A DNA stretch of 64,000 nt, taken from positions 32,001-96,000 of the forward strand of contig JAWLHY010000004.1 of the NCBI GenBank assembly GCA_041690135.1, in the 5' to 3' direction. Shown piece by piece: positions 14,729-22,860 of the stretch. Both the position numbers and the translations under genes were made by a program. The notes below the pieces were generated by a model. The model saw only the letters and a program-made list of their open reading frames with translations, was not told the origin of the DNA and made no database searches. Source of the stretch: Armatimonadota bacterium (GTDB lineage: Bacteria; Armatimonadota; SYMT01). Positions within the stretch are counted from its first letter, which is position 1. Each line of letters begins with the position of its first letter.

Positions 14729-15364
14729 TCAATACGGACGCACGCTGAAGTCTCCGAGCGTCAGCGTCCAGCTGTCCCGCTGGTTTTCTGCCAGGAAACG
14801 CAGGACCGTTTCGCCTGCCAGGGCCGTGGCCATCAGGACCAGGTTGCGAGCCAGCGGGTAGTCGCAGACGTCGCCTGCGGCATCCGAGGGGACCCGGTAC
14901 TTTTCGTTCCAGATGACTTCAGCGTAGTCCGCGTTCAGGCCAACGTGCAGGCATGGCAGGCCCTCGCGCTCGCAGTGGTCGGCCACCAGACGACGGGAGA
15001 CGCTGTTGTCGAACCCGTCGACCACCAGGTCGGCGCCGGTCAGGAGTTTCCGGACGTTCTTCTCCGTAAGCTCCTTCGCTACCGCCTCGATCTCCACGCC
15101 AACCGCCCGAAACAGCAGGTGCTGGAGCGTCTCCGCCTTGAAGCCGCCCACGTCGTCGAGTGTCCACACCTGGGTGCTGACGTTATGCTCCTCGACGCGA
15201 TCGCGGTCGATGACGCACAGGTTTCCGGCGCCCTGCCGCGCCAGGTTCTCCGCCAGGTTCGACCCTACGGCCCCGGCACCGCATACAATGATTCGAGCTT
15301 CCGTCAGGCGAGCCATCACCTCCGGCCCGCGATAGATCTGTTCGTGGTGGAATTTCGTAGCCAT
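14729..15364 (-). CDS. ThiF/E1-like adenylyltransferase
   Basis: GAGAVGS nucleotide-binding loop, IDRDRVEEHNVSTQ, VVDGFDN, C-terminal DVCDY; start trimmed to MATKF. Confidence 0.9.
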   Translation of the reverse strand: MATKFHHEQIYRGPEVMARLTEARIIVCGAGAVGSNLAENLARQGAGNLCVIDRDRVEEHNVSTQVWTLDDVGGFKAETLQHLLFRAVGVEIEAVAKELTEKNVRKLLTGADLVVDGFDNSVSRRLVADHCEREGLPCLHVGLNADYAEVIWNEKYRVPSDAAGDVCDYPLARNLVLMATALAGETVLRFLAENQRDSWTLTLGDFSVRPY

Positions 15365-15404
15365 ACTCAGTACCCCCGGTTCCGTACGCCCGGTTCCGAA
15401 TTGA

Positions 15405-15627
15405 ACCGCCAAGACGCCAAGAACGCCAAGAGGGAAGAAGGGAAGTGCCAAGAAGAGAATGTAGGTAGCTCCGGATAGAGCGCCTGTTGTGCTCCGCCTA
15501 CACTAACTACCTGACGTATGCCCGTAGCTGCGTGCTGATTTGTCACCGCCAAGCACCAACTAAAAGCCATCCCATCCTCTTCTTCCACTCTCCTTTCCGA
15601 ACTTGGCGCTCTTGGCGTCTTGGCGGT
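15405..15627. repeat. Inverted-repeat element built from CGCCAAG-containing units (REP/MITE-like)
   Basis: ACCGCCAAGACGCCAAGAACGCCAAG (15405-15430) versus CTTGGCGCTCTTGGCGTCTTGGCGGT (15602-15627), with purine/pyrimidine-rich inner arms. Confidence 0.7.
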
Positions 15628-15639
15628 AAAGAGAGCACC

Positions 15640-16548
15640 CTAGCGGCGGCGCCGCCGCCGGCCTCCCGGCGGGTGGATCTCCCGGTAGACTTCCTCCGGC
15701 AAGCCGTGGTCGCCGCCGACGCGGGTCAGGTAACCCCGCTGCCCCTCGCGGATCACGCCGACCAGGCTGGTAAGGTCGAACTTCTCATCCTCGCCGGAGA
15801 GGCAGATCCCCGCCAGCATCACCGACAGGTCGTTCTTACGGACCGTCGCGGTGTGGGTCTCCCCGTCCACCGTAAAGGTCACGGCGTAAACGTCCTTCCG
15901 CTCGACGAAGCCGCGAAACTTCCCGTTCGCGTGATTTACCGCGGCCTTGAGGCGCTCCTCGGTGCTGTCACGCTGTTCCTGCTCGCGCAGCAGAAGCTGC
16001 CACTCGTAGGCCAGCCGCTCCTGTGGGGTCAGCGACGCCTTCCGGAGGTCATCCGGCTTGCGCCCTTCCTGGAGCGACTCCCGGAGGTAAGCCGCTATGG
16101 ACGGGCTCCGGCGGGGGTTGCGGCCCTCGACAAAGAACCGCGAGCCATCCCAACGCGCTCGCACCGTGTCGAAGACCTGGACCTCTCCCGGCAACAGGAC
16201 CGGCACCAGCCCGTCGAGCCGGAAGCGGGTGTCCGAGCCTTCGGCAGCCAATGCCCACCAGCCGTCCGCACGCTTCTCCGTAAGCACCAGCGACACCGCG
16301 GGAAACAGCCGGAGATACTCCCGGATCTGGCGCAGGCGCGCGGCCCCCACCACCCGCGCGGTGTGGGAGTCCTCCGGCTTCAGGAGCGCCCAGCCCTCGA
16401 AGTCGCGGGGCGCGACCTGAAACTTCCAGACGATGCCGGCAACCCGTACCTGAACCCCGGCCCCTTTCAACACCGGAGCCACGAAGGTGCTCTCCAGGAA
16501 ACTCTGCTCTTCCTGAGTCATTCGCCGCAGCAACTCCCGCACATCCAT
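15640..16548 (-). CDS. Hypothetical protein of the TROVE operon; possible E2-like C-terminal domain
   Basis: GAGG RBS; co-oriented with the operon; its only Cys lies in AGICLSGEDEKFDLTSLVGVI. The ORF is solid; the E2 call is inference. Confidence 0.7.
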   Translation of the reverse strand: MDVRELLRRMTQEEQSFLESTFVAPVLKGAGVQVRVAGIVWKFQVAPRDFEGWALLKPEDSHTARVVGAARLRQIREYLRLFPAVSLVLTEKRADGWWALAAEGSDTRFRLDGLVPVLLPGEVQVFDTVRARWDGSRFFVEGRNPRRSPSIAAYLRESLQEGRKPDDLRKASLTPQERLAYEWQLLLREQEQRDSTEERLKAAVNHANGKFRGFVERKDVYAVTFTVDGETHTATVRKNDLSVMLAGICLSGEDEKFDLTSLVGVIREGQRGYLTRVGGDHGLPEEVYREIHPPGGRRRRRR

Positions 16549-16559
16549 CGGAAATTCCT

Positions 16560-17327
16560 CTACTCCACGGGCTTCTGCCCCGTGATCACAAGACGGCGGC
16601 TCTCCAGGGTGAGCCGGCTGCCGTCGAGCCCACCGTAGACGACCACCCCCGCCAGGCCGGCGGAACGGAACATCGCCGTCAACTCGGCGGCGGTATACAG
16701 GCGCAGCGAATGACTGAAGCCCGAGCGGCGCCCATCCGGATAGATCAGCGTTCCCTTCACCTCCTGGCGACTGGTCGGGAGATCAAACGACCGCTCTTCC
16801 AGGACCAGGGTGCCGTCTTCCAGGCGCTGCACGCCGCTCTCCGCGAACCGGCGCAGGAGGCTGTCGCGATGGATGATCTCCATCAAGAACACGCCACCGG
16901 GTTTGAGGGCACGCACCACTCCCTGGAGAACCTTCTGATCTTCCGCCTCGTCTTCCAGGTAGCCGAAGGCGGTAAAGAGGTTGACCACGGCATCGAAACA
17001 GCCCTCGAAGGGGATCCGGCGCATGTCACTCCGCACCCACTGCACCTCCACGCCTTCCTCCGCAGCGTTCGCCTGCGCGTGGCGGAGGAAGCATTCACTC
17101 AGGTCGAGCCCGGTCATCCGGTAGCCTCGCCGGGCCAGTGGAACGGTATGCCGGCCGTGACCGCAGCAGAGATCGAGGAGGCGGCTTCCCGGCGACAGCG
17201 CCAGCAGTTCGCACACCCCCTCGACCTCCGCGGTGGTCCGCTCCGGAGTCAGCATGGGCGAGTAGCGCTGGAGGTACTCCTCATTGAAGATCTGCTCGTA
17301 CCAGGGGGTTTTCTCCATCGCTTGCAT
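16560..17327 (-). CDS. Class I SAM-dependent methyltransferase
   Basis: LLDLCCGHGRH, GLDLS, DMRRIPF, FTAFGY, ALKPGG; start 17327 or 17318. Confidence 0.9.
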   Translation of the reverse strand: MQAMEKTPWYEQIFNEEYLQRYSPMLTPERTTAEVEGVCELLALSPGSRLLDLCCGHGRHTVPLARRGYRMTGLDLSECFLRHAQANAAEEGVEVQWVRSDMRRIPFEGCFDAVVNLFTAFGYLEDEAEDQKVLQGVVRALKPGGVFLMEIIHRDSLLRRFAESGVQRLEDGTLVLEERSFDLPTSRQEVKGTLIYPDGRRSGFSHSLRLYTAAELTAMFRSAGLAGVVVYGGLDGSRLTLESRRLVITGQKPVE

Positions 17328-17470
17328 CTCCGCTCGCTCCACACCTTTATCGGAGGGGTGTGGGGGTGTGGGGGTGTGGGGGTGTGGAAGAATGGGAGAG
17401 TTGTTGCCCAAGTGGGGCTCCCTATCTCCCATTCGTCCCCCACCCATTCGTACCGAGTTTTCGCACCAGA

Positions 17471-18433
17471 TCAGGCGGCCGCCTCTTCCAGCAGCATCGC
17501 CCGGTAGACGCGACCAAGGGTCTTGCTGATCGCACTTCGGATGAGCTTGTCGTCGAACCCTTGCTCATGGAGCGCCTGCCACTCGGGCTCGCACTCCTTA
17601 CGAAGGTCATCGATCATCGCCGGCACCAGGCGCGGCATATCGGTCATGTCGCCGGCCACGGTCACGCCGGTATCCCGCAGGCGCCCGAGAGCGTTGATGA
17701 CACGCCCCCGCACGACGAAGGTTCGTGCGAACGTCTCGACCGGAGTCAGGTCGGGACGCTGCTCCCGGATCGACTGGCGGGAAACCTCCGCAAAGCGCTC
17801 GCACTTGTGCTTGACGATCAGCCATTCGCCGAACACGTTCCGCAGGAGCGGGTTGGAGCGGAGGACCACCCCTTCCATCAGGTTGGTCTCGCCGGCCACC
17901 CCTTGCGCCAACCCTTCCGGAGAGACGCGCTCCAGAAGGGCGTTGAACGCCTCCAGACTCGGCTCGCCGCGCCAGATTTCCGCCACCCGCGGCAGACCCG
18001 CCGCGTCGCACAACTCCACGAAGAGCTCATAGGTAACGAACGCCTCGCCGATGCGGATGTCGAAAGCCCGGAACAAGATGCGGTCGTCGGAGACGTAGCG
18101 CACGCCCTTCTGGATGCCGGCTCCGCAGATCTCGCCGTAAACCACCACGCTGCCGTAGCCGCGCTCGCGGAACAGGGACCCCAGCTTTTGGAGAAGTTCC
18201 GGACGCTCCTTGAACCAGCGCACCGGGCGCCCCGCGTAGAACTCATCGCCGCCGGAGGTTCCGAACTCCTCGTTGCGGCCTCCGTATTGGACCTCGTCAA
18301 TGGAGGTCATCCCGGCGGGAAAGTAGACCCGGAAGTTCGTGCCATGCAGTTTCTCCGTGGCGATGACTTCCTTCACCGCCAGCAGTTCCCGCCGTTTCTC
18401 CAGGCCCACGATTTCCGGGTACTTGTAGAACAT
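17471..18433 (-). CDS. ATP-dependent RNA ligase, Rnl2 family
   Basis: Motif I EKLHGTN, III YGEICG, IIIa FRAFDI, IV EGVVLR, V IVKHK, plus a C-terminal helical domain; GGAGG RBS. Confidence 0.9.
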   Translation of the reverse strand: MFYKYPEIVGLEKRRELLAVKEVIATEKLHGTNFRVYFPAGMTSIDEVQYGGRNEEFGTSGGDEFYAGRPVRWFKERPELLQKLGSLFRERGYGSVVVYGEICGAGIQKGVRYVSDDRILFRAFDIRIGEAFVTYELFVELCDAAGLPRVAEIWRGEPSLEAFNALLERVSPEGLAQGVAGETNLMEGVVLRSNPLLRNVFGEWLIVKHKCERFAEVSRQSIREQRPDLTPVETFARTFVVRGRVINALGRLRDTGVTVAGDMTDMPRLVPAMIDDLRKECEPEWQALHEQGFDDKLIRSAISKTLGRVYRAMLLEEAAA

Positions 18434-18460: not shown

Positions 18461-18607
18461 TGGGGAGCCCGCGCGAGTTCCGAAAGCTGAGGTGTGTCTC
18501 TATCGATCTACAGTCGATTGCCTTTGACCGCTCGGCCACATCCTTACGGATGGTGGGATTCGAACCCACGGAGTGTGTGTAAGCTTCCGGGATGGGGCGC
18601 GGGCCCC
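18461..18607 (-). ncRNA. Y-like scaffold RNA 1 carrying a circularly permuted tRNA-Tyr(GUA) mimic
   Basis: Order: outer stem, T arm GUGGG-UUCGAAU-CCCAC, acceptor hairpin CAUCC-GUAA-GGAUG, D arm, anticodon arm AUCGA-CUGUAGA-UCGAU, outer stem; shared scaffold motif AGCUUACA. Confidence 0.85.
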
Positions 18608-18619
18608 TTAAACTGAAGT

Positions 18620-18670
18620 GAGGGCAATTTGCAATTTCAAATCTGCAATTTCAAATCTCAAATTGCCCTC
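18620..18670. repeat. AT-rich palindromic element with GCAATTTCAAATCT units
   Basis: GAGGGCAATTTG...CAAATTGCCCTC enclosing two tandem GCAATTTCAAATCT copies. Confidence 0.55.
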
Positions 18671-18689
18671 TGATGCGCTGTCGGAGCCC

Positions 18690-20318
18690 TCAGGAGGACC
18701 GCCGTACCGGCAGCGGGTACTCCATGATCTCCATCAGCATCTCGGTCCGCGAGGACTGCGAGAGCATCGGGATCAGGTTCGGCAGCGCGTAGTAATCGCC
18801 GCTGAACTGGAAAGCATCGGCCGCGAGACCGGCTGCCTTCATCTGCGTTTCAAGCATCTGCGAGGCCCCCCGCGTCTTCACGAAGCAGACATTCGGGTCC
18901 GCGTTGAGCTCCTCGCGATACTTCTGCAGCGACTGCGTGAAGCATGGCGGCGTGTTCTCCCCCTCGTCGGTGACCAGGATGATCTGCTCCACATACTGCC
19001 GCTTCTGCCGCAGGCGCTCGATACCCACGCCACAGGACGTCCCACCGCCGGCTTTCACCCCCGCCAGCGCCTTCTCCCAGGAGACCAGGTCCTGGCCCGC
19101 CGGTTCGATCTTGATGGCGATAGTGTCGAAGGCATAGACGTAGAGTTCGCTCTCACAGACGGTGCTGAGCATCGCCCCGATGCGCTTCCCCACCTCGATC
19201 GCCTCCTGCATCGACCCGGACTTGTCGATCAGCAGCGCGGTCGGCCGGGTGATCCGTCCCCGCAGCTTCACCTGGGCGTCGGTAACCTGGTCCAGCTTCT
19301 TCTCCAGGTCCGGATCGACGCCGGCCGCCTTCGCGGCTTCCTTCGCCTTGTAGGCAGAGACGCGCCGGTCGGTCTGCGCCCGCTCCAGCTTCTTCTCGAT
19401 GAGCGCCTTCAGGTCCGGGTTGTCCAGCGCCCCGCGCCGCTTCAGCGAACCGAGGTTGTTGATCAACTCCTGCGGCGTCATCGCTTCCACCAGCGCGACC
19501 AGCACCGTCGGCGTCATCTGGCGCACCGCCGACGACGCGATCCGGTACGGGATTCGGTGCTCCAGGATCGCCGCGGCCTGCTCCGCCGGCGTCGCCGCCC
19601 GCGCCAGGGCCTTCACCTGGAACAGCTTGCTGTCCGGAGGCGGGCTCTCCTCGAAGAGGATCGCCTGGGCTCGGTCGGACGGCGCGATGTGTGCCAGGGC
19701 ATAGAGTCGCTTCATCTGGCGGCGAGCCAGGGTCGCGCACTCATCGAACCAGGCCGGGTTCGCTTCCCGCTCTCGCAGGTAACGGCGCAGCTCCGTCTTC
19801 AGCGAGCGCGGCAGGTTCCGGAAGAGGCCCTGCTTGTCGAGCTTTTCCTGGACCACCGTCTCCACGGCCGCTCCCGGGGTTTCCGCCCCTACCCTCTGGA
19901 CAGCCTGTCCCTTGCGGCCCTTCTTCCCGCTGCGCTTCCGGCCCACCAGCGCGCGCAGCTCTTCGCGACGCTGCGTGGCATCCGGACGGACGCGCACCTT
20001 CCGGCGCTGGACCTTGCCGTGGATGAAATCCACCACCCGGCCGACCTGGTACGGCGGCATCCCCCGGAGCAGGGCCAGGCCGACATCCCGATGCCCTTCG
20101 AAGTCGCTCAAGACCAGGGTCGCCGCGAACATCTCCTTGTGGTCGCGCACCGCGCCGGTATCGGCATACCAAGCGGCCAGGTGCACGTAGAACCGCGGGT
20201 CCTGCTCGATCATGTCGGCATGCACGCAGTAGACCGACTCCAGGTCGCGGTGCGGGCACGCGAGCAGCGTGTTCAGGATCTGCAAACGGTTGTCCTGCTC
20301 GTTCATGGTCTGTTCCAT
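18690..20318 (-). CDS. Divergent TROVE/Ro60-like RNA-binding protein with C-terminal vWA domain
   Basis: Helical N-terminus with PRFYVHLAAW...VRDHK and QELINNLGSL; vWA MIDAS LIDKSGSM, GGTSCG, ILVTDEGEN; GAGGAGG RBS before ATG 20318; context of RNA ligase and tRNA-like RNAs. Confidence 0.8.
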   Translation of the reverse strand: MEQTMNEQDNRLQILNTLLACPHRDLESVYCVHADMIEQDPRFYVHLAAWYADTGAVRDHKEMFAATLVLSDFEGHRDVGLALLRGMPPYQVGRVVDFIHGKVQRRKVRVRPDATQRREELRALVGRKRSGKKGRKGQAVQRVGAETPGAAVETVVQEKLDKQGLFRNLPRSLKTELRRYLREREANPAWFDECATLARRQMKRLYALAHIAPSDRAQAILFEESPPPDSKLFQVKALARAATPAEQAAAILEHRIPYRIASSAVRQMTPTVLVALVEAMTPQELINNLGSLKRRGALDNPDLKALIEKKLERAQTDRRVSAYKAKEAAKAAGVDPDLEKKLDQVTDAQVKLRGRITRPTALLIDKSGSMQEAIEVGKRIGAMLSTVCESELYVYAFDTIAIKIEPAGQDLVSWEKALAGVKAGGGTSCGVGIERLRQKRQYVEQIILVTDEGENTPPCFTQSLQKYREELNADPNVCFVKTRGASQMLETQMKAAGLAADAFQFSGDYYALPNLIPMLSQSSRTEMLMEIMEYPLPVRRSS

Positions 20319-20341
20319 CGGGGACCTCCTCGTCCACATCA

Positions 20342-20490
20342 GGCCCGTACAAGTCGCTGGAGCGATTTAGACGTACAGGTGCTCTTCCACTGAGCTACGC
20401 CGGCAAGCAACGCCGGCGGCAGGACTCGAACCTGCGACCCCCCGGTCCGCAACCGAGACGTTTGTAAGCTCCCACCATAGGGTACGGGCC
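20342..20490 (-). ncRNA. Y-like scaffold RNA 2 carrying a circularly permuted tRNA-Arg(GCG) mimic
   Basis: Order: outer stem, anticodon arm CUCGG-UUGCGGA-CCGGG, GGGUC, T arm GCAGG-UUCGAGU-CCUGC, acceptor hairpin CGCCGGC-7 nt-GCCGGCG, D arm GCUC-AGUGGAA-GAGC, outer stem. Confidence 0.85.
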
Positions 20491-20492
20491 AA

Positions 20493-20564
20493 TCGGGGTG
20501 GGAGGAATCGAACCTCCGACATCGTGTACCCAAGACACGTGTTCTACCACTGAACTACACCCCG
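20493..20564 (-). tRNA. tRNA-Pro(TGG), no encoded CCA
   Basis: Full cloverleaf CGGGGTG/CACCCCG; anticodon loop CT-TGG-GT; A73. Confidence 0.92.
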
Positions 20565-20583
20565 TCCGCTCTCCTCACATTGA

Positions 20584-20794
20584 GGCTCGTGCAAGTCGCC
20601 GCAGCACTGCGTTTTTCGTTCCATGGACAGTCCGCCGGTGAGCTCTTACGCACTCTTTAAAGGGTGGCTGCTCTTGAGCCGACCTCCCGGGTTCTCTCCA
20701 TCCACTTCCCTTAGCGCCCGCCGGACTGCCTCTCGCCCAGCGGCCCATTTCCTCTCGTACTCGGTTTGTATGCTGCGCCCGTAGGGCACGAGCC
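20584..20794 (-). ncRNA. Y-like scaffold RNA 3 carrying a sarcin-ricin loop and a 23S H42-H44 (GTPase-associated centre) mimic
   Basis: Same outer scaffold; AGUACGAGAGGA at 20750-20761; 56-nt H43-H44-like segment at 20635-20690. Confidence 0.85.
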
Positions 20795-20816
20795 GCGGCG
20801 ACCCTGGCCGCCGGAA

Positions 20817-20890
20817 TGCCGATGATAGGATTCGAACCTACAACCAACAGGCTCTCGACCTGCCTCCTCTACCGATTGGGATACACCGGC
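20817..20890 (-). tRNA. tRNA-Leu(GAG), atypical (C33, short variable loop), no CCA
   Basis: GCCGGTG/CATCGGC acceptor, Leu-type D loop, anticodon loop TC-GAG-AG, A73. Confidence 0.75.
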
Positions 20891-20928
20891 ATCGCCCCAA
20901 TTCGGCCCCGCAACTGCGCGGCGACCGA

Positions 20929-21002
20929 TGCCCGCGGAGGGATTCGAACCCCCAACCTCCTGGTTCTAAGCCAGGCGCCTCTGCCAGTTGGGCTACGCGG
21001 GC
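20929..21002 (-). tRNA. tRNA-Leu(TAG), short variable loop, no CCA
   Basis: GCCCGCG/CGCGGGC acceptor; loop CT-TAG-AA; A73. Confidence 0.88.
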
Positions 21003-21014
21003 CTGAAAAATCCA

Positions 21015-21088
21015 GGCGAGTGGTGGGCCTCGAACCCACAACCTTCGGCATATGAGGCCGCTGCGCTCGCCAATTGCGCCACACTCAC
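21015..21088 (-). tRNA. tRNA with CAT anticodon (Met or Ile2), atypical, no CCA
   Basis: GTGAGTG/CACTCGC acceptor; loop CT-CAT-AT; G27:A43 mismatch; C at position 73. Confidence 0.75.
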
Positions 21089-21109
21089 TCAAAAAGAAAC
21101 GGGGCCAAG

Positions 21110-21180
21110 GGTGTCGGGAGGGAATCGAACCCTCATCGGCAGGGCCACAACCTGCTCGCTTCCCATTAGCGTACCGACAC
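21110..21180 (-). tRNA. tRNA-His(GTG), G-1 not encoded, no CCA
   Basis: GTGTCGG/CCGACAC acceptor; loop TT-GTG-GC; C73. Confidence 0.88.
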
Positions 21181-21181
21181 A

Positions 21182-21254
21182 CGGGGCTGGCGGGACTCGA
21201 ACCCGCGGTCTTCACCTCGACAGGGTGCTATGTTGACCACTACACCACAACCCC
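21182..21254 (-). tRNA. tRNA-Asp(GTC), no CCA
   Basis: GGGGTTG/CAGCCCC acceptor; loop CT-GTC-GA; G73. Confidence 0.88.
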
Positions 21255-21350
21255 AAGTGCTGCCCCCGGCATGGGGCAGCGAAGAAACTTGCATTCCAGA
21301 TTGTCAAAGAACGGTGCCGTAAACGCTCGCGCGTTCGCGGATCCCGGTTA

Positions 21351-21422
21351 CTCCGGCGGCAGGATTCGAACCTGCAGCCCGCGCCTTAACAGGGCGCCGC
21401 TCTACCGTTGAGCTACACCGGA
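21351..21422 (-). tRNA. tRNA-Asn(GTT), no CCA
   Basis: TCCGGTG/CGCCGGA acceptor; loop CT-GTT-AA; G73. Confidence 0.92.
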
Positions 21423-21435
21423 CCAGTTTTCAAGT

Positions 21436-21509
21436 TGCCTCCGGTGGGATTCGAACCCGCACTGAACCGCTCTTAAGGCGGTTGGCTCTGCCAATTGGCC
21501 TACGGAGGC
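21436..21509 (-). tRNA. tRNA-Leu(TAA), short variable loop, no CCA
   Basis: GCCTCCG/CGGAGGC acceptor; loop CT-TAA-GA; A73. Confidence 0.88.
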
Positions 21510-21525
21510 GCTATTCAATTTCCAA

Positions 21526-21599
21526 CAGGGAAGAGAGGATTCGAACCTCCGACCTCCGGGTCCGCAACCCGGTGCTCTATCCAGCTAAGCTACTCCCCC
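21526..21599 (-). tRNA. tRNA-Arg(GCG), no CCA
   Basis: GGGGGAG/CTTCCCT acceptor; loop TT-GCG-GA; A20 in the D loop; G73. Confidence 0.88.
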
Positions 21600-21604
21600 A
21601 AATT

Positions 21605-21740
21605 TAGCGGCGCGCAAGTTCAAGAAGCTGAAGTTCCGGATTTGAACCGGCACCTCCTGAGTAAGGATCAGGTGCTCTACCTTTGAGCTATTCGCTTGTG
21701 AAGCGAAGTTTGTAAGCTTCTCCGTTTGGGCGCGCCGCCA
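21605..21740 (-). ncRNA. Y-like scaffold RNA 4 carrying a circularly permuted tRNA-Lys(CUU)-like mimic
   Basis: Order: outer stem, acceptor hairpin UUCGCUU-CAC-AAGCGAA, D arm GCUC-AAAGGUA-GAGC, anticodon arm CCUGA-UCCUUAC-UCAGG, T arm CCGG-UUCAAAU-CCGG, outer stem. Confidence 0.85.
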
Positions 21741-21747
21741 GCCAAAT

Positions 21748-21981
21748 CTATCCGAACACGGCCTCGGGCCTTACGGTCCAATTTCCGCTTTCGTGATGCT
21801 CGACCACGTACTCTTCCAGTTCGCGGCTGGGCAGATCCAGATAACGAGCCAGCGCTACACGGACGTGGTAATCGCTCATCGGCTCGCCCACCCGCAACTC
21901 ACGCAGCGGAATATCGAAACTACGCCCCCGATAGCGAACGTGCAGCACTGCTTCCTGACGATTTCGCACTTGCTGAGCCAT
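21748..21981 (-). CDS. Small protein ending in ...EAVFG, candidate ubiquitin-like modifier
   Basis: AGGAG RBS; 77 aa; strand-strand-helix-strand-strand pattern; terminal Gly; first gene of an operon that contains an E1. Confidence 0.7.
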   Translation of the reverse strand: MAQQVRNRQEAVLHVRYRGRSFDIPLRELRVGEPMSDYHVRVALARYLDLPSRELEEYVVEHHESGNWTVRPEAVFG

Positions 21982-22001: not shown

Positions 22002-22044
22002 AAAAATACCGAAGCCCCGAGGTCCGGATGGACCTCGGGGCTTC
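22002..22044 (-). terminator. Attenuator terminator A
   Basis: 15-bp hairpin GAAGCCCCGAGGTCC/GGACCTCGGGGCTTC followed by GGTATTTTT, just upstream of the first operon gene. Confidence 0.75.
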
Positions 22045-22071
22045 TACGCAAAGCCACTGCAGCCAAAATAG

Positions 22072-22230
22072 CTACACCGGAGGTCCTATCTGAATATTGC
22101 GATCACTTCGCCGCGGGAGATGTCCGGGGTTGACGGCATTACCCAGCAGCACAGCCAGATTCAGCAAGGAGCTAATCATCCCTGTCTGAACGTTCTTCTT
22201 ATTGATCTGCGTGTAATCCATCCAGCCCAT
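22072..22230 (-). CDS. Putative leader peptide A (52 aa, ends IQIGPPV-stop)
   Basis: First in-frame ATG downstream of the promoter at 22271-22298; the GPP codons are complementary to the 5' arm of terminator A. Confidence 0.6.
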   Translation of the reverse strand: MGWMDYTQINKKNVQTGMISSLLNLAVLLGNAVNPGHLPRRSDRNIQIGPPV

Positions 22231-22270
22231 CTTCGCTCTTCCGATCTCATCAACCCCGTCTCTGCATCGC

Positions 22271-22298
22271 ATTATAGATGCATTCTCCGAAGAGTCAA
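22271..22298 (-). promoter_or_regulatory. Sigma70-type promoter A
   Basis: TTGACT-N16-TATAAT on the minus strand. Confidence 0.7.
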
Positions 22299-22569: not shown

Positions 22570-22604
22570 AAAAAGCCCCGAGGCCGGTGGGACCTCGGGG
22601 CTTT
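22570..22604 (-). terminator. Attenuator terminator B
   Basis: AAAGCCCCGAGGTC/GGCCTCGGGGCTTT hairpin ending in a U5 tract; near-copy of terminator A. Confidence 0.8.
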
Positions 22605-22630
22605 GCAGAACGGGCAAATACTACAACTGT

Positions 22631-22789
22631 CTAGCCGGGAGGTCCGCTGATACGCGTGTGGCGCAGGTGCTCGAAGCCGAGATTCCATCCGCTAAGCGCG
22701 ACACGCGGCGCCATGGAGTCAGTGCGTCGATCACAGGCCGGATCTGTGGTTAATCTGCGCTGGATCGAAATCACGACTCTTACTCGCAT
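22631..22789 (-). CDS. Putative leader peptide B (52 aa, ends RISGPPG-stop)
   Basis: Translated by hand (absent from the ORF track): MRVRVVISIQRRLTTDPACDRRTDSMAPRVALSGWNLGFEHLRHTRISGPPG. Confidence 0.6.
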   Translation of the reverse strand: MRVRVVISIQRRLTTDPACDRRTDSMAPRVALSGWNLGFEHLRHTRISGPPG

Positions 22790-22831
22790 GGAAAACGGTG
22801 GCCCCGCGAGGGGGTACTCCCTTGGTAACCG

Positions 22832-22860
22832 ATTATTGTCAGCACTTCCGGAGAAGTCAA
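22832..22860 (-). promoter_or_regulatory. Sigma70-type promoter B
   Basis: TTGACT-N17-AATAAT with an A-tract upstream; spacer resembles that of promoter A. Confidence 0.6.

Follow-up and report, generated by a model that had tools for sequence, protein, structure and literature searches.

The stretch of DNA analyzed here (the window) comprises 64,000 nucleotides from an Armatimonadota bacterium (GenBank assembly GCA_041690135.1, contig JAWLHY010000004.1, positions 32,001 to 96,000), and coordinates given without a locus name refer to it. On its minus strand lie four structured RNAs, RNA1 to RNA4, which share an outer scaffold but differ in the inner domain (the cargo) that the scaffold encloses. 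They accompany a gene for a 542-aa protein of the Ro60 type:

18464..18607, minus strand: RNA1, scaffold with a permuted tRNA-Tyr(GUA)-like cargo
20342..20490, minus strand: RNA2, scaffold with a permuted tRNA-Arg(GCG)-like cargo
20584..20794, minus strand: RNA3, scaffold with a 23S rRNA mimic as cargo
21606..21739, minus strand: RNA4, scaffold with a hairpin, D arm, anticodon-like arm and T arm, without an acceptor stem
18690..20318, minus strand: Ro60/TROVE-vWA protein, 542 aa, recognized by Foldseek and hhalign

RNA2, RNA3 and RNA4 are located upstream of the Ro gene, where they are interleaved with nine ordinary tRNA genes, and RNA1 sits between the Ro gene and an RNA ligase gene.

The original prediction, made from sequence alone, proposed that the four RNAs share a covarying outer scaffold whose stems differ in sequence but keep pairing, and this proved to be real. 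All four pairs of 5' and 3' arms that it quoted are present on the minus strand, and folding z-scores for the three RNAs on which they were run were -5.0 (RNA1), -2.4 (RNA2) and -5.3 (RNA4). Homologous DNA was assembled from 79 metagenome loci (from the best 80 of 707), 15 genome regions and 3 more, giving 97 loci. A pairing-filtered descriptor found 162 scaffold elements, 152 of them distinct, in 68 loci including the window. Additionally, a set picked by sequence motif without a pairing filter, as a guard against circularity, held 140 distinct elements from 65 loci, with 5 further 5' motifs that had no matching 3' half. In these 140 copies all 8 outer-stem positions are paired in 83-94% of cases, and mutual information exceeded the maximum of 500 shuffles at every one of them. 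An alignment of 78 pairing-filtered elements of similar length, a set that leans towards pairing and whose related members are not independent, had 91% of its cells paired, double changes at 16 of 18 pairs and a covariation score of 0.608 compared to 0.224 when shuffled; the compensatory changes include G-U pairs. When a covariance model built from this alignment, with RNA3 outside the training set, was run on the window's own 9.1-Mb genome, it found exactly these four elements.

The internal loop had been drawn as 6x5. An internal loop is indeed kept, but the pair drawn next to it is paired in 42% of the 140 copies versus 46% in shuffles, and the neighboring 5' base fits better (60/78 versus 50/78). 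The scaffold is therefore better drawn as a stem P1 of 8-11 bp, a 5x5 loop (CCRAC/RACUY), one pair, a 1-nt bulge and a 7-bp stem P2, which ends in AGC/GCU and is followed by the unpaired NUACAAAC. The Rfam comparison called for in the original prediction found no family at threshold for the scaffold; RNA2 scored 36.6 bits on YrlA (RF02553, cut-off 69), a match confined to model positions 24-84 in its tRNA-like part. A call of tRNA-Arg by ARAGORN at 20411-20489 was rejected as an artefact of RNA2. The four RNAs are thus real, and their scaffold is widespread and apparently undescribed. The sources compared, each in part, were PMC4201824, 10.1101/312249, PMC12135203, PMC8421152, PMC7824862 and PMC8058203; the literature searched held no description of the RNA family, though the gene neighborhood may have been mentioned before.

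The 542-aa protein has no match to PF05731, the Pfam TROVE family, and the one TROVE match in the genome is a different gene on another contig (C2). The AlphaFold model of the protein (pLDDT 85.5) matches Ro60, Deinococcus Rsr and the Ro60 of phage phiLo over its whole length in Foldseek (TM about 0.55-0.62, E 1e-11 to 7e-9), and the top 11 matches listed are all Ro60, Rsr or TROVE. In hhalign it scored 91.7% against the canonical TROVE paralogue of the same genome. The protein is therefore predicted to fold as a full-length Ro60, a helical ring plus vWA. Within the helix D-x-x-R-x-x-H, presumably the canonical Y-RNA-binding helix of Ro, the His is matched by an invariant His210, and the Asp and Arg are replaced by R204 and A207. 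PF25045 was above its cut-off in both of two homologues, which had been picked for that label. This Ro clade is large (2375 hits among 8000 scored candidates), and named members have been found in Planctomycetes, on two plasmids of cyanobacteria and in an uncultured phage of 595 kb; a scan of GTDB contigs with a single Ro protein query yielded 1 locus. Because PF05731 does not match, a 2014 survey of TROVE-annotated genomes would not have targeted the clade, and a large group of Ro proteins overlooked by Pfam TROVE is brought to light here. As a separate observation, a tRNA-like RNA with a large anticodon-arm insertion lies upstream of the canonical TROVE gene on contig C2 (L001 1160-1405), and the short Y RNA that follows it scored 36.5 bits on the nematode family RF01656 (cut-off 38).

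Scaffold RNAs are encoded beside the Ro60-type gene. The covariance model gave 248 matches among the 97 loci, a count that includes near-duplicate loci and about 7 tRNA-only partial matches. A hand tally puts the scaffold in 78 of the 97 loci; of the 19 loci without it, 16 reach <500 nt upstream of the match. The reverse test used 150 genomes from the class of G061 (G061-G210), drawn regardless of whether they had a Ro gene. Matches of at least 48 bits occurred in 8 of them, which were exactly the 8 that carry the Ro clade, and six of these 8 had supplied no training sequence. None of the other 142 genomes reached 48 bits, and 18 had weak matches (37-45 bits). Of nine weak-match regions that were fetched, 7 adjoin another gene of the TROVE type and hold a sister version of the scaffold, which suggests that every Ro clade has its own handle. 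This sister Y-RNA class (CCGA, GAGUACAU, CACCACUU) was seen at L185, L187-L191 and L196, often in tRNA arrays; it may overlap with the YrlA candidates of the 2014 survey, and it shows a continuum with known Y RNAs. Scaffold copies were also found in tRNA arrays far from the Ro gene, in genomes that have it (L193, L194), as expected of a trans-acting RNA. A variant with a 7-nt loop required 6 changes on a quick Ro tree of 74 rows versus a shuffled mean of 9.6, with 0 of 500 shuffles as low; the variant is clustered and mostly uniform within a locus, which is not proof of co-evolution. In a sample of the window's own phylum the 5' pattern was present in 23 of 301 genomes compared to about 15 control matches, with full scaffolds in 5 only. 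In IMG/VR a strict 5' scaffold pattern had 9 matches, 0 of them with the 3' half; the phage copy of the operon was found through its protein instead.

Compared with Y RNAs in general, the scaffold has the long stem formed from the 5' and 3' ends with an internal loop or bulge, and the 3' words ACUYG (145/152) and YUAC (105/152), both of which are partly built into the selection motif. The Rfam consensus lines of YrlA and of nematode RF01656 likewise have a 3' ACUUG (AACUUG in RF01656) and a YUAY-like word. However, GGUCCGA was present in 0/152 elements, GNCGAA in 5/152 and CGAA in the loop in 0/152, while CCGA was present in 39/152, in agreement with the earlier claim that the motif differs from the canonical Ro motif. 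This suggests that the scaffold is a divergent Y-RNA handle rather than an unrelated module, and that the RNA family is Y-type and differs from known Y RNAs in its 5' strand. The idea of a distinct Y-RNA class that goes with a divergent TROVE clade is therefore upheld by the Ro fold and the 8/8 co-occurrence, but not to the point of a module unrelated to known Y RNAs.

One close comparison is YrlA, the partner of Rsr/Ro60 in Salmonella and Mycobacterium. Both are encoded beside Ro60 with several Y RNAs per locus, and both combine a terminal stem with a tRNA-like domain whose acceptor loop is closed, along with YUAY and a 3' ACUUG. However, scores on the YrlA model in other loci (39.1-42.5 bits) also fall short of its cut-off, there is no GNCGAA in the loop, and the Ro partner lacks a PF05731 match. 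YrlA has been described without an anticodon loop (10.1101/312249), whereas one is present in RNA1 (GUA), in RNA2 (GCG) and in 38 cargos in all. The RNAs reported here also have at least four opening points and include rRNA mimics, and no such mimic is described in the part of PMC4201824 compared. That source reported candidate YrlA RNAs next to TROVE-annotated genes in some Planctomycetes and in one member of the Armatimonadetes, and a D/T arm orientation in Deinococcus Yrn1 other than that of YrlA (PMC4201824), which is a precedent for more than one arrangement.

The original prediction contained neither the tRNA and 23S mimicry of the variable domains nor the ubiquitin-like genes of the operon, and these are the more surprising parts. 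The cargo of RNA1 runs T arm, 5-bp closed acceptor, D arm and anticodon arm, and that of RNA2 runs anticodon arm, T arm, 7-bp closed acceptor and D arm; RNA4 matches the tRNA model at positions 5-66 only. Cargos were sorted with a rough regular expression after 4 of the 152 were dropped because they span two units, and some of the resulting 148 rows are misfiled, RNA1 included. The classes were 48 with an anticodon or variable arm, T arm, closed acceptor and D arm; 37 with a T arm but no recognized D arm, many of which start inside the D loop; 34 short hairpins; 14 with D, anticodon and T arms without an acceptor; 3 T-first (plus RNA1 and at least 2 others misfiled); 5 helix-69; 1 with the sarcin-ricin loop (SRL) and L11 domain; and 6 others. 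The order T arm, closed acceptor, D arm is found in RNA1, RNA2 and about 48-55 of the 148 cargos, but not in RNA3, RNA4 or the rest, and the tRNA cargos are permuted at no fewer than four different opening points. Anticodon arms on their own also occur as cargo. All 22 loci with at least 3 elements hold at least 2 cargo classes, and a tally of 66 distinct among 82 compares to a shuffled mean of 59, with 7 of 2000 shuffles as high. A constant handle with a varied effector domain could give a cargo-by-cargo view of what the effector domains of Y RNAs recruit, and the free cargo slot could make this handle useful as a natural scaffold for RNA display.

Two further kinds of cargo were noted. A conserved three-way-junction cargo at L024 3883-4012, L076 1625-1754, L118 4437-4563 and L028 3158-3281 had no tRNA, rRNA or Rfam match. 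Elements of about 187 nt at L043, L054, L064, L119, L121, L122 and L129 have a permuted cargo like tRNA-Ser with a long variable arm, and two extra hairpins.

It could be argued that the RNAs are permuted precursors that lose or tolerate the scaffold and whose cargo matures, through RNase P, CCA addition and ligation, into spare working tRNAs or rRNA patches. In RNA2 all four arms are present, along with a real anticodon and an acceptor of 7 bp, and the anticodon-type loops of the 38 cargos are 7 nt long and canonical-looking. Permuted tRNA genes matured by circularisation are known, but RNA2 is the only complete cloverleaf of the four, the acceptor of RNA1 has 5 bp and RNA4 has none, and 34 of the 148 cargos are short hairpins, with many others lacking a whole arm. 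The ligase is also not conserved, being present in 1 of the 98 loci, many of them truncated, that the tally of neighboring genes covers, and a general role for ligase-driven circularisation was rejected on that count. Although the YrlA of M. smegmatis is cut by RNase P and gains CCA (PMC4201824), a fusion of SRL and L11 domain cannot be part of a ribosome, and the precursor explanation is considered highly improbable.

That fusion is the cargo of RNA3, in which two parts of 23S rRNA can be recognized:

20750..20761, minus strand: sarcin-ricin loop 12-mer at the start of the RNA3 cargo, identical in two 23S rRNAs
20623..20705, minus strand: mimic of the L11-binding (GTPase-associated) domain, Rfam RF02541 model 1077-1160, 54.3 bits

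The second part would correspond to what we take to be helices 42-44; in 23S rRNA about 1,500 nt separate the two sites. On its own, the 12-mer is about as frequent in the 9.1-Mb genome as expected by chance (2 copies). However, in an element on a plasmid of Kovacikia minuta the scaffold leads straight into the same 12-mer, large-subunit rRNA positions 1081-1156 (49.5 bits) come next, and the SRL+L11 cargo is thus known from two phyla. Six loci have a shortened copy of what are presumably 23S helices 67-71, which opens and closes in the helix-69 loop; in the Dolichospermum copy both helix strands are changed together, and L184 has a compensatory stem. A design kept across phyla, together with compensatory helix changes, suggests that the rRNA-type cargos are rebuilt mimics and not debris. 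This is the first sign of rRNA-mimicking Y RNAs in the literature searched, and it includes the two sites at which elongation factors contact the ribosome, fused in compact form. The leaders of rplK-rplA or L10 also copy an rRNA binding site and act in cis on their mRNA, whereas the RNAs here stand alone in a shared scaffold and RNA3 fuses two distant sites. A pattern of scaffold plus SRL was found in 0 of 11 genomes, a sample too small to inform.

The same evidence bears on the possibility that the elements are repeats or processing signals at the level of DNA, in which debris of tRNA and rRNA became trapped, and have no function as RNA. The elements do lie in tRNA arrays on mobile elements. 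However, the presence of G-U pairs among the compensatory changes, the strict coupling to one Ro clade, the re-engineering of the cargo (closed acceptor loops, shortened helices) and the persistence of the SRL+L11 design make this explanation scarcely credible.

Three observations concern 23S-like sequences. A Kovacikia cargo (L182 9801-9951) contains the word GGGAUAACA, possibly reminiscent of the peptidyl-transferase region. No true 23S rRNA turned up when the window's own genome (G000) was queried with RNA3, and RNA3 could therefore be mistaken in annotation for a fragment of the genome's rRNA. Locus L138 (NZ_AP027888.1), which an E. coli assembly presents as a 2,750-bp 'plasmid', contains 23S rRNA only and lacks two motifs of E. 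coli 23S; it is probably a contaminant contig.

The genes around the Ro gene and RNAs in the window, all on the same strand, are the following:

21748..21981, minus strand: putative ubiquitin-like (Ubl) modifier, 77 aa, ending in RPEAVFG with an invariant C-terminal Gly
15640..16548, minus strand: X302, 302 aa, with OB-like beta domains, a long helix and a C-terminal domain with an invariant Cys248 (GICL)
14729..15451, minus strand: ThiF/E1-family enzyme (PF00899, 106 bits)
17471..18433, minus strand: ATP-dependent RNA ligase (PF09414), a local insert
16560..17447, minus strand: class I methyltransferase, a local insert present, like the ligase, in 1/98 loci

Across the 98 loci the genes beside Ro are X302 (59), the small protein (44), the ThiF E1 (39), a JAB protein of family PF14464 (22) and vWA (5). 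The usual order is small protein, RNAs, Ro, RNA, X302, JAB and E1, and it is kept in metagenomes, Planctomycetes, cyanobacterial plasmids and the 595-kb phage. That phage (LR756511.1; L183 10700-21610) has the whole operon with about 10 elements, some apparently nested or interleaved. K. minuta, a cultured cyanobacterium, has the operon without JAB on its plasmid. The end of the small protein, R-P-x-A-x-x-G, is invariant in 33 aligned homologues, rows with other ends having been left out, and the protein had no informative match in PDB or Atlas. X302, whose model has a pLDDT of 89, had no match in Pfam, PADLOC or Atlas. In the predicted complex of Ro with X302 the score was 0.54 versus 0.00 for the best control, with contact agreement of at least 73% and partner pLDDT of at least 70. 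Among 157 solved pairs 116 reached the mark used, as did 2 of 215 mismatched pairs; at scores up to 0.60, however, only 18 solved pairs did so, along with both mismatches. The model thus lends weak support to such a complex.

Bacterial operons for ubiquitin-like conjugation include CBASS Cap2/Cap3, Bil and Bub, which also bring together an E1/ThiF, a JAB and a small protein whose C-terminal Gly is invariant. The operon described here differs from these in that no E2 fold was found, with the Cys/OB protein X302 in its place, and in its coupling to Ro60 and structured RNAs; PADLOC matches in the operon are to generic E1 and JAB domains only. Ro60 particles are thereby linked to ubiquitin-like conjugation genes, and this linkage together with the rRNA-mimic cargos lifts the family well above an ordinary new Y subclass.

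Deinococcus Yrn1/Yrn2 with RYPER, metazoan Y RNA and nematode RF01656 share with this family a two-module logic of Ro handle and effector domain. The family differs from them in that GGUCCGA is absent and no link to PNPase was seen, with E1, JAB and the Gly-ending small protein in its stead. Tethering of PNPase in RYPER is the demonstrated role of the Deinococcus Y RNA (PMC4201824), and the RNAs here might by analogy recruit enzymes of RNA decay or repair (PNPase, ligases, modification enzymes) to Ro, with the Ubl genes regulating Ro or X302 themselves instead of tagging captured proteins. The OB-like domains of X302, the RNA ligase in the window operon and the lack of Ubl genes at some loci agree with this. 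However, the ligase is a rarity, and many tRNA permutations plus precise copies of SRL, L11 domain and helix 69 are unexplained if the partner is a single nuclease. A tether of this kind is rather unlikely, though it is the likeliest of the rivals.

Given the observed scaffold structure, cargo identity, Ro fold and gene linkage, it is very probable that these are Ro-bound Y-type RNAs with modular mimic domains. A fuller bait-and-tag model, in which Ro displays a panel of baits and the proteins that grab them are tagged or held, is the best of the explanations compared but tentative. The operon would be transcribed and cut into unit RNAs, whose 5'/3' scaffold would bind the outer face of the divergent Ro60 ring, as the fold, the gene linkage and the precedent of Y RNAs suggest. 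The cargo would fold into a mimic of a working surface of tRNA or of a 23S functional center, as it does at the level of sequence and secondary structure. Because the point of reopening, a loop or a junction, differs from one natural RNA to the next, a locus would display several non-redundant surfaces. The Ro particle would then capture proteins that recognize these surfaces, most likely nucleases of the anticodon, SRL or helices 69/70, or else translation factors. ThiF would activate the Gly-ending small protein, X302 docked on Ro would pass it to the captured protein and JAB would remove it. The net effect would be that translation is protected or controlled during attack or stress.

Ribotoxins usually attack the mimicked tRNA and rRNA sites, and translation factors dock at them too, which means that sequence by itself does not tell which are caught. 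A more far-reaching version of the bait-and-tag model is a surveillance system of a new kind, in which a Ro60 ring carries an expandable RNA-encoded bait library that imitates those surfaces where the translation apparatus comes under attack (anticodon arms, tRNA elbow and acceptor, SRL with L11 domain, helices 67-71) and a non-canonical cascade of E1, Cys/OB protein, Ubl and JAB marks binders or cutters. This version is possible rather than probable; the phage copy of the operon fits a use in counter-defense. If true, it would mean that RNA chooses the substrates for ubiquitin-like tagging in bacteria, in a system that cells use and a jumbo phage has captured.

Several points weigh against the bait-and-tag model. 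Ro binding, RNA expression and conjugation are all inferred. X302 has no match to an E2 fold, and its listed matches are OB folds with Z <6, the C-terminal domain not having been searched alone. A tblastn search of the window's genome with one query detected no JAB. Additionally, Planctomycete loci with long flanks (L119, L121-L123, L126-L129) have Ro and RNAs with no Ubl, X302 or E1 nearby, which suggests that tagging is not obligatory.

The setting of the operon in the window raises one more alternative:

20493..21599, minus strand: nine ordinary tRNA genes (Pro, Leu x3, Met/Ile2, His, Asp, Asn, Arg), interleaved with RNA2-4
22271..22298, minus strand: sigma-70-like promoter upstream of the operon, 11/12 consensus (consensus match only)
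22011..22272, minus strand: leader with a 66-codon upstream open reading frame (uORF) ending in GPPV and a terminator hairpin, a putative attenuator

Ro might do no more than stabilize the RNAs, which as passive decoys would, through their abundance, soak up ribotoxins or ribosome-binding drugs and factors under translation stress. The cargo does copy functional hot spots, the leader has attenuator-like units, and operons often adjoin long tRNA arrays. Such arrays were called near L045 (27 tRNA genes), L050 (24) and the Kovacikia operon (33, by ARAGORN), and the phage operon lies upstream of a 24-tRNA array; most loci had no tRNA array within the DNA fetched. The trn operon of Anabaena, a long tRNA array and in this respect similar to the extra tRNA genes in or next to the operon here, is induced by translation stress (PMC8421152); the terms 'Y RNA' and 'Ro60' have 0 occurrences in that part of PMC8421152 which is its main text. 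However, a few small RNAs would compete with the cell's whole mass of tRNA and rRNA, and the conserved Ubl, X302, E1 and JAB genes (44, 59, 39 and 22 loci as tallied above) would be unexplained. Passive decoys are thus distinctly unlikely.

Regarding the tRNA genes themselves, bacterial tRNA-Leu usually has a long variable arm, and the three tRNA-Leu genes of the array (20817-20890, 20929-21002 and 21436-21509, minus strand) are 74 nt long and lack it. Attenuator leaders were not found in 34 other loci by a crude scan of 35 upstream regions, near-duplicates included. In the window the last codons of the uORF are able to pair with the 5' arm of the terminator, and a second unit of promoter, uORF and terminator is located at 22572-22860 on the minus strand (uORF and terminator at 22572-22789). 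In both tandem uORFs the end is G-P-P plus one residue, encoded by codons that can pair with the 5' arm of the terminator, and the two units together are a possible ribosome-sensing attenuator of the operon.

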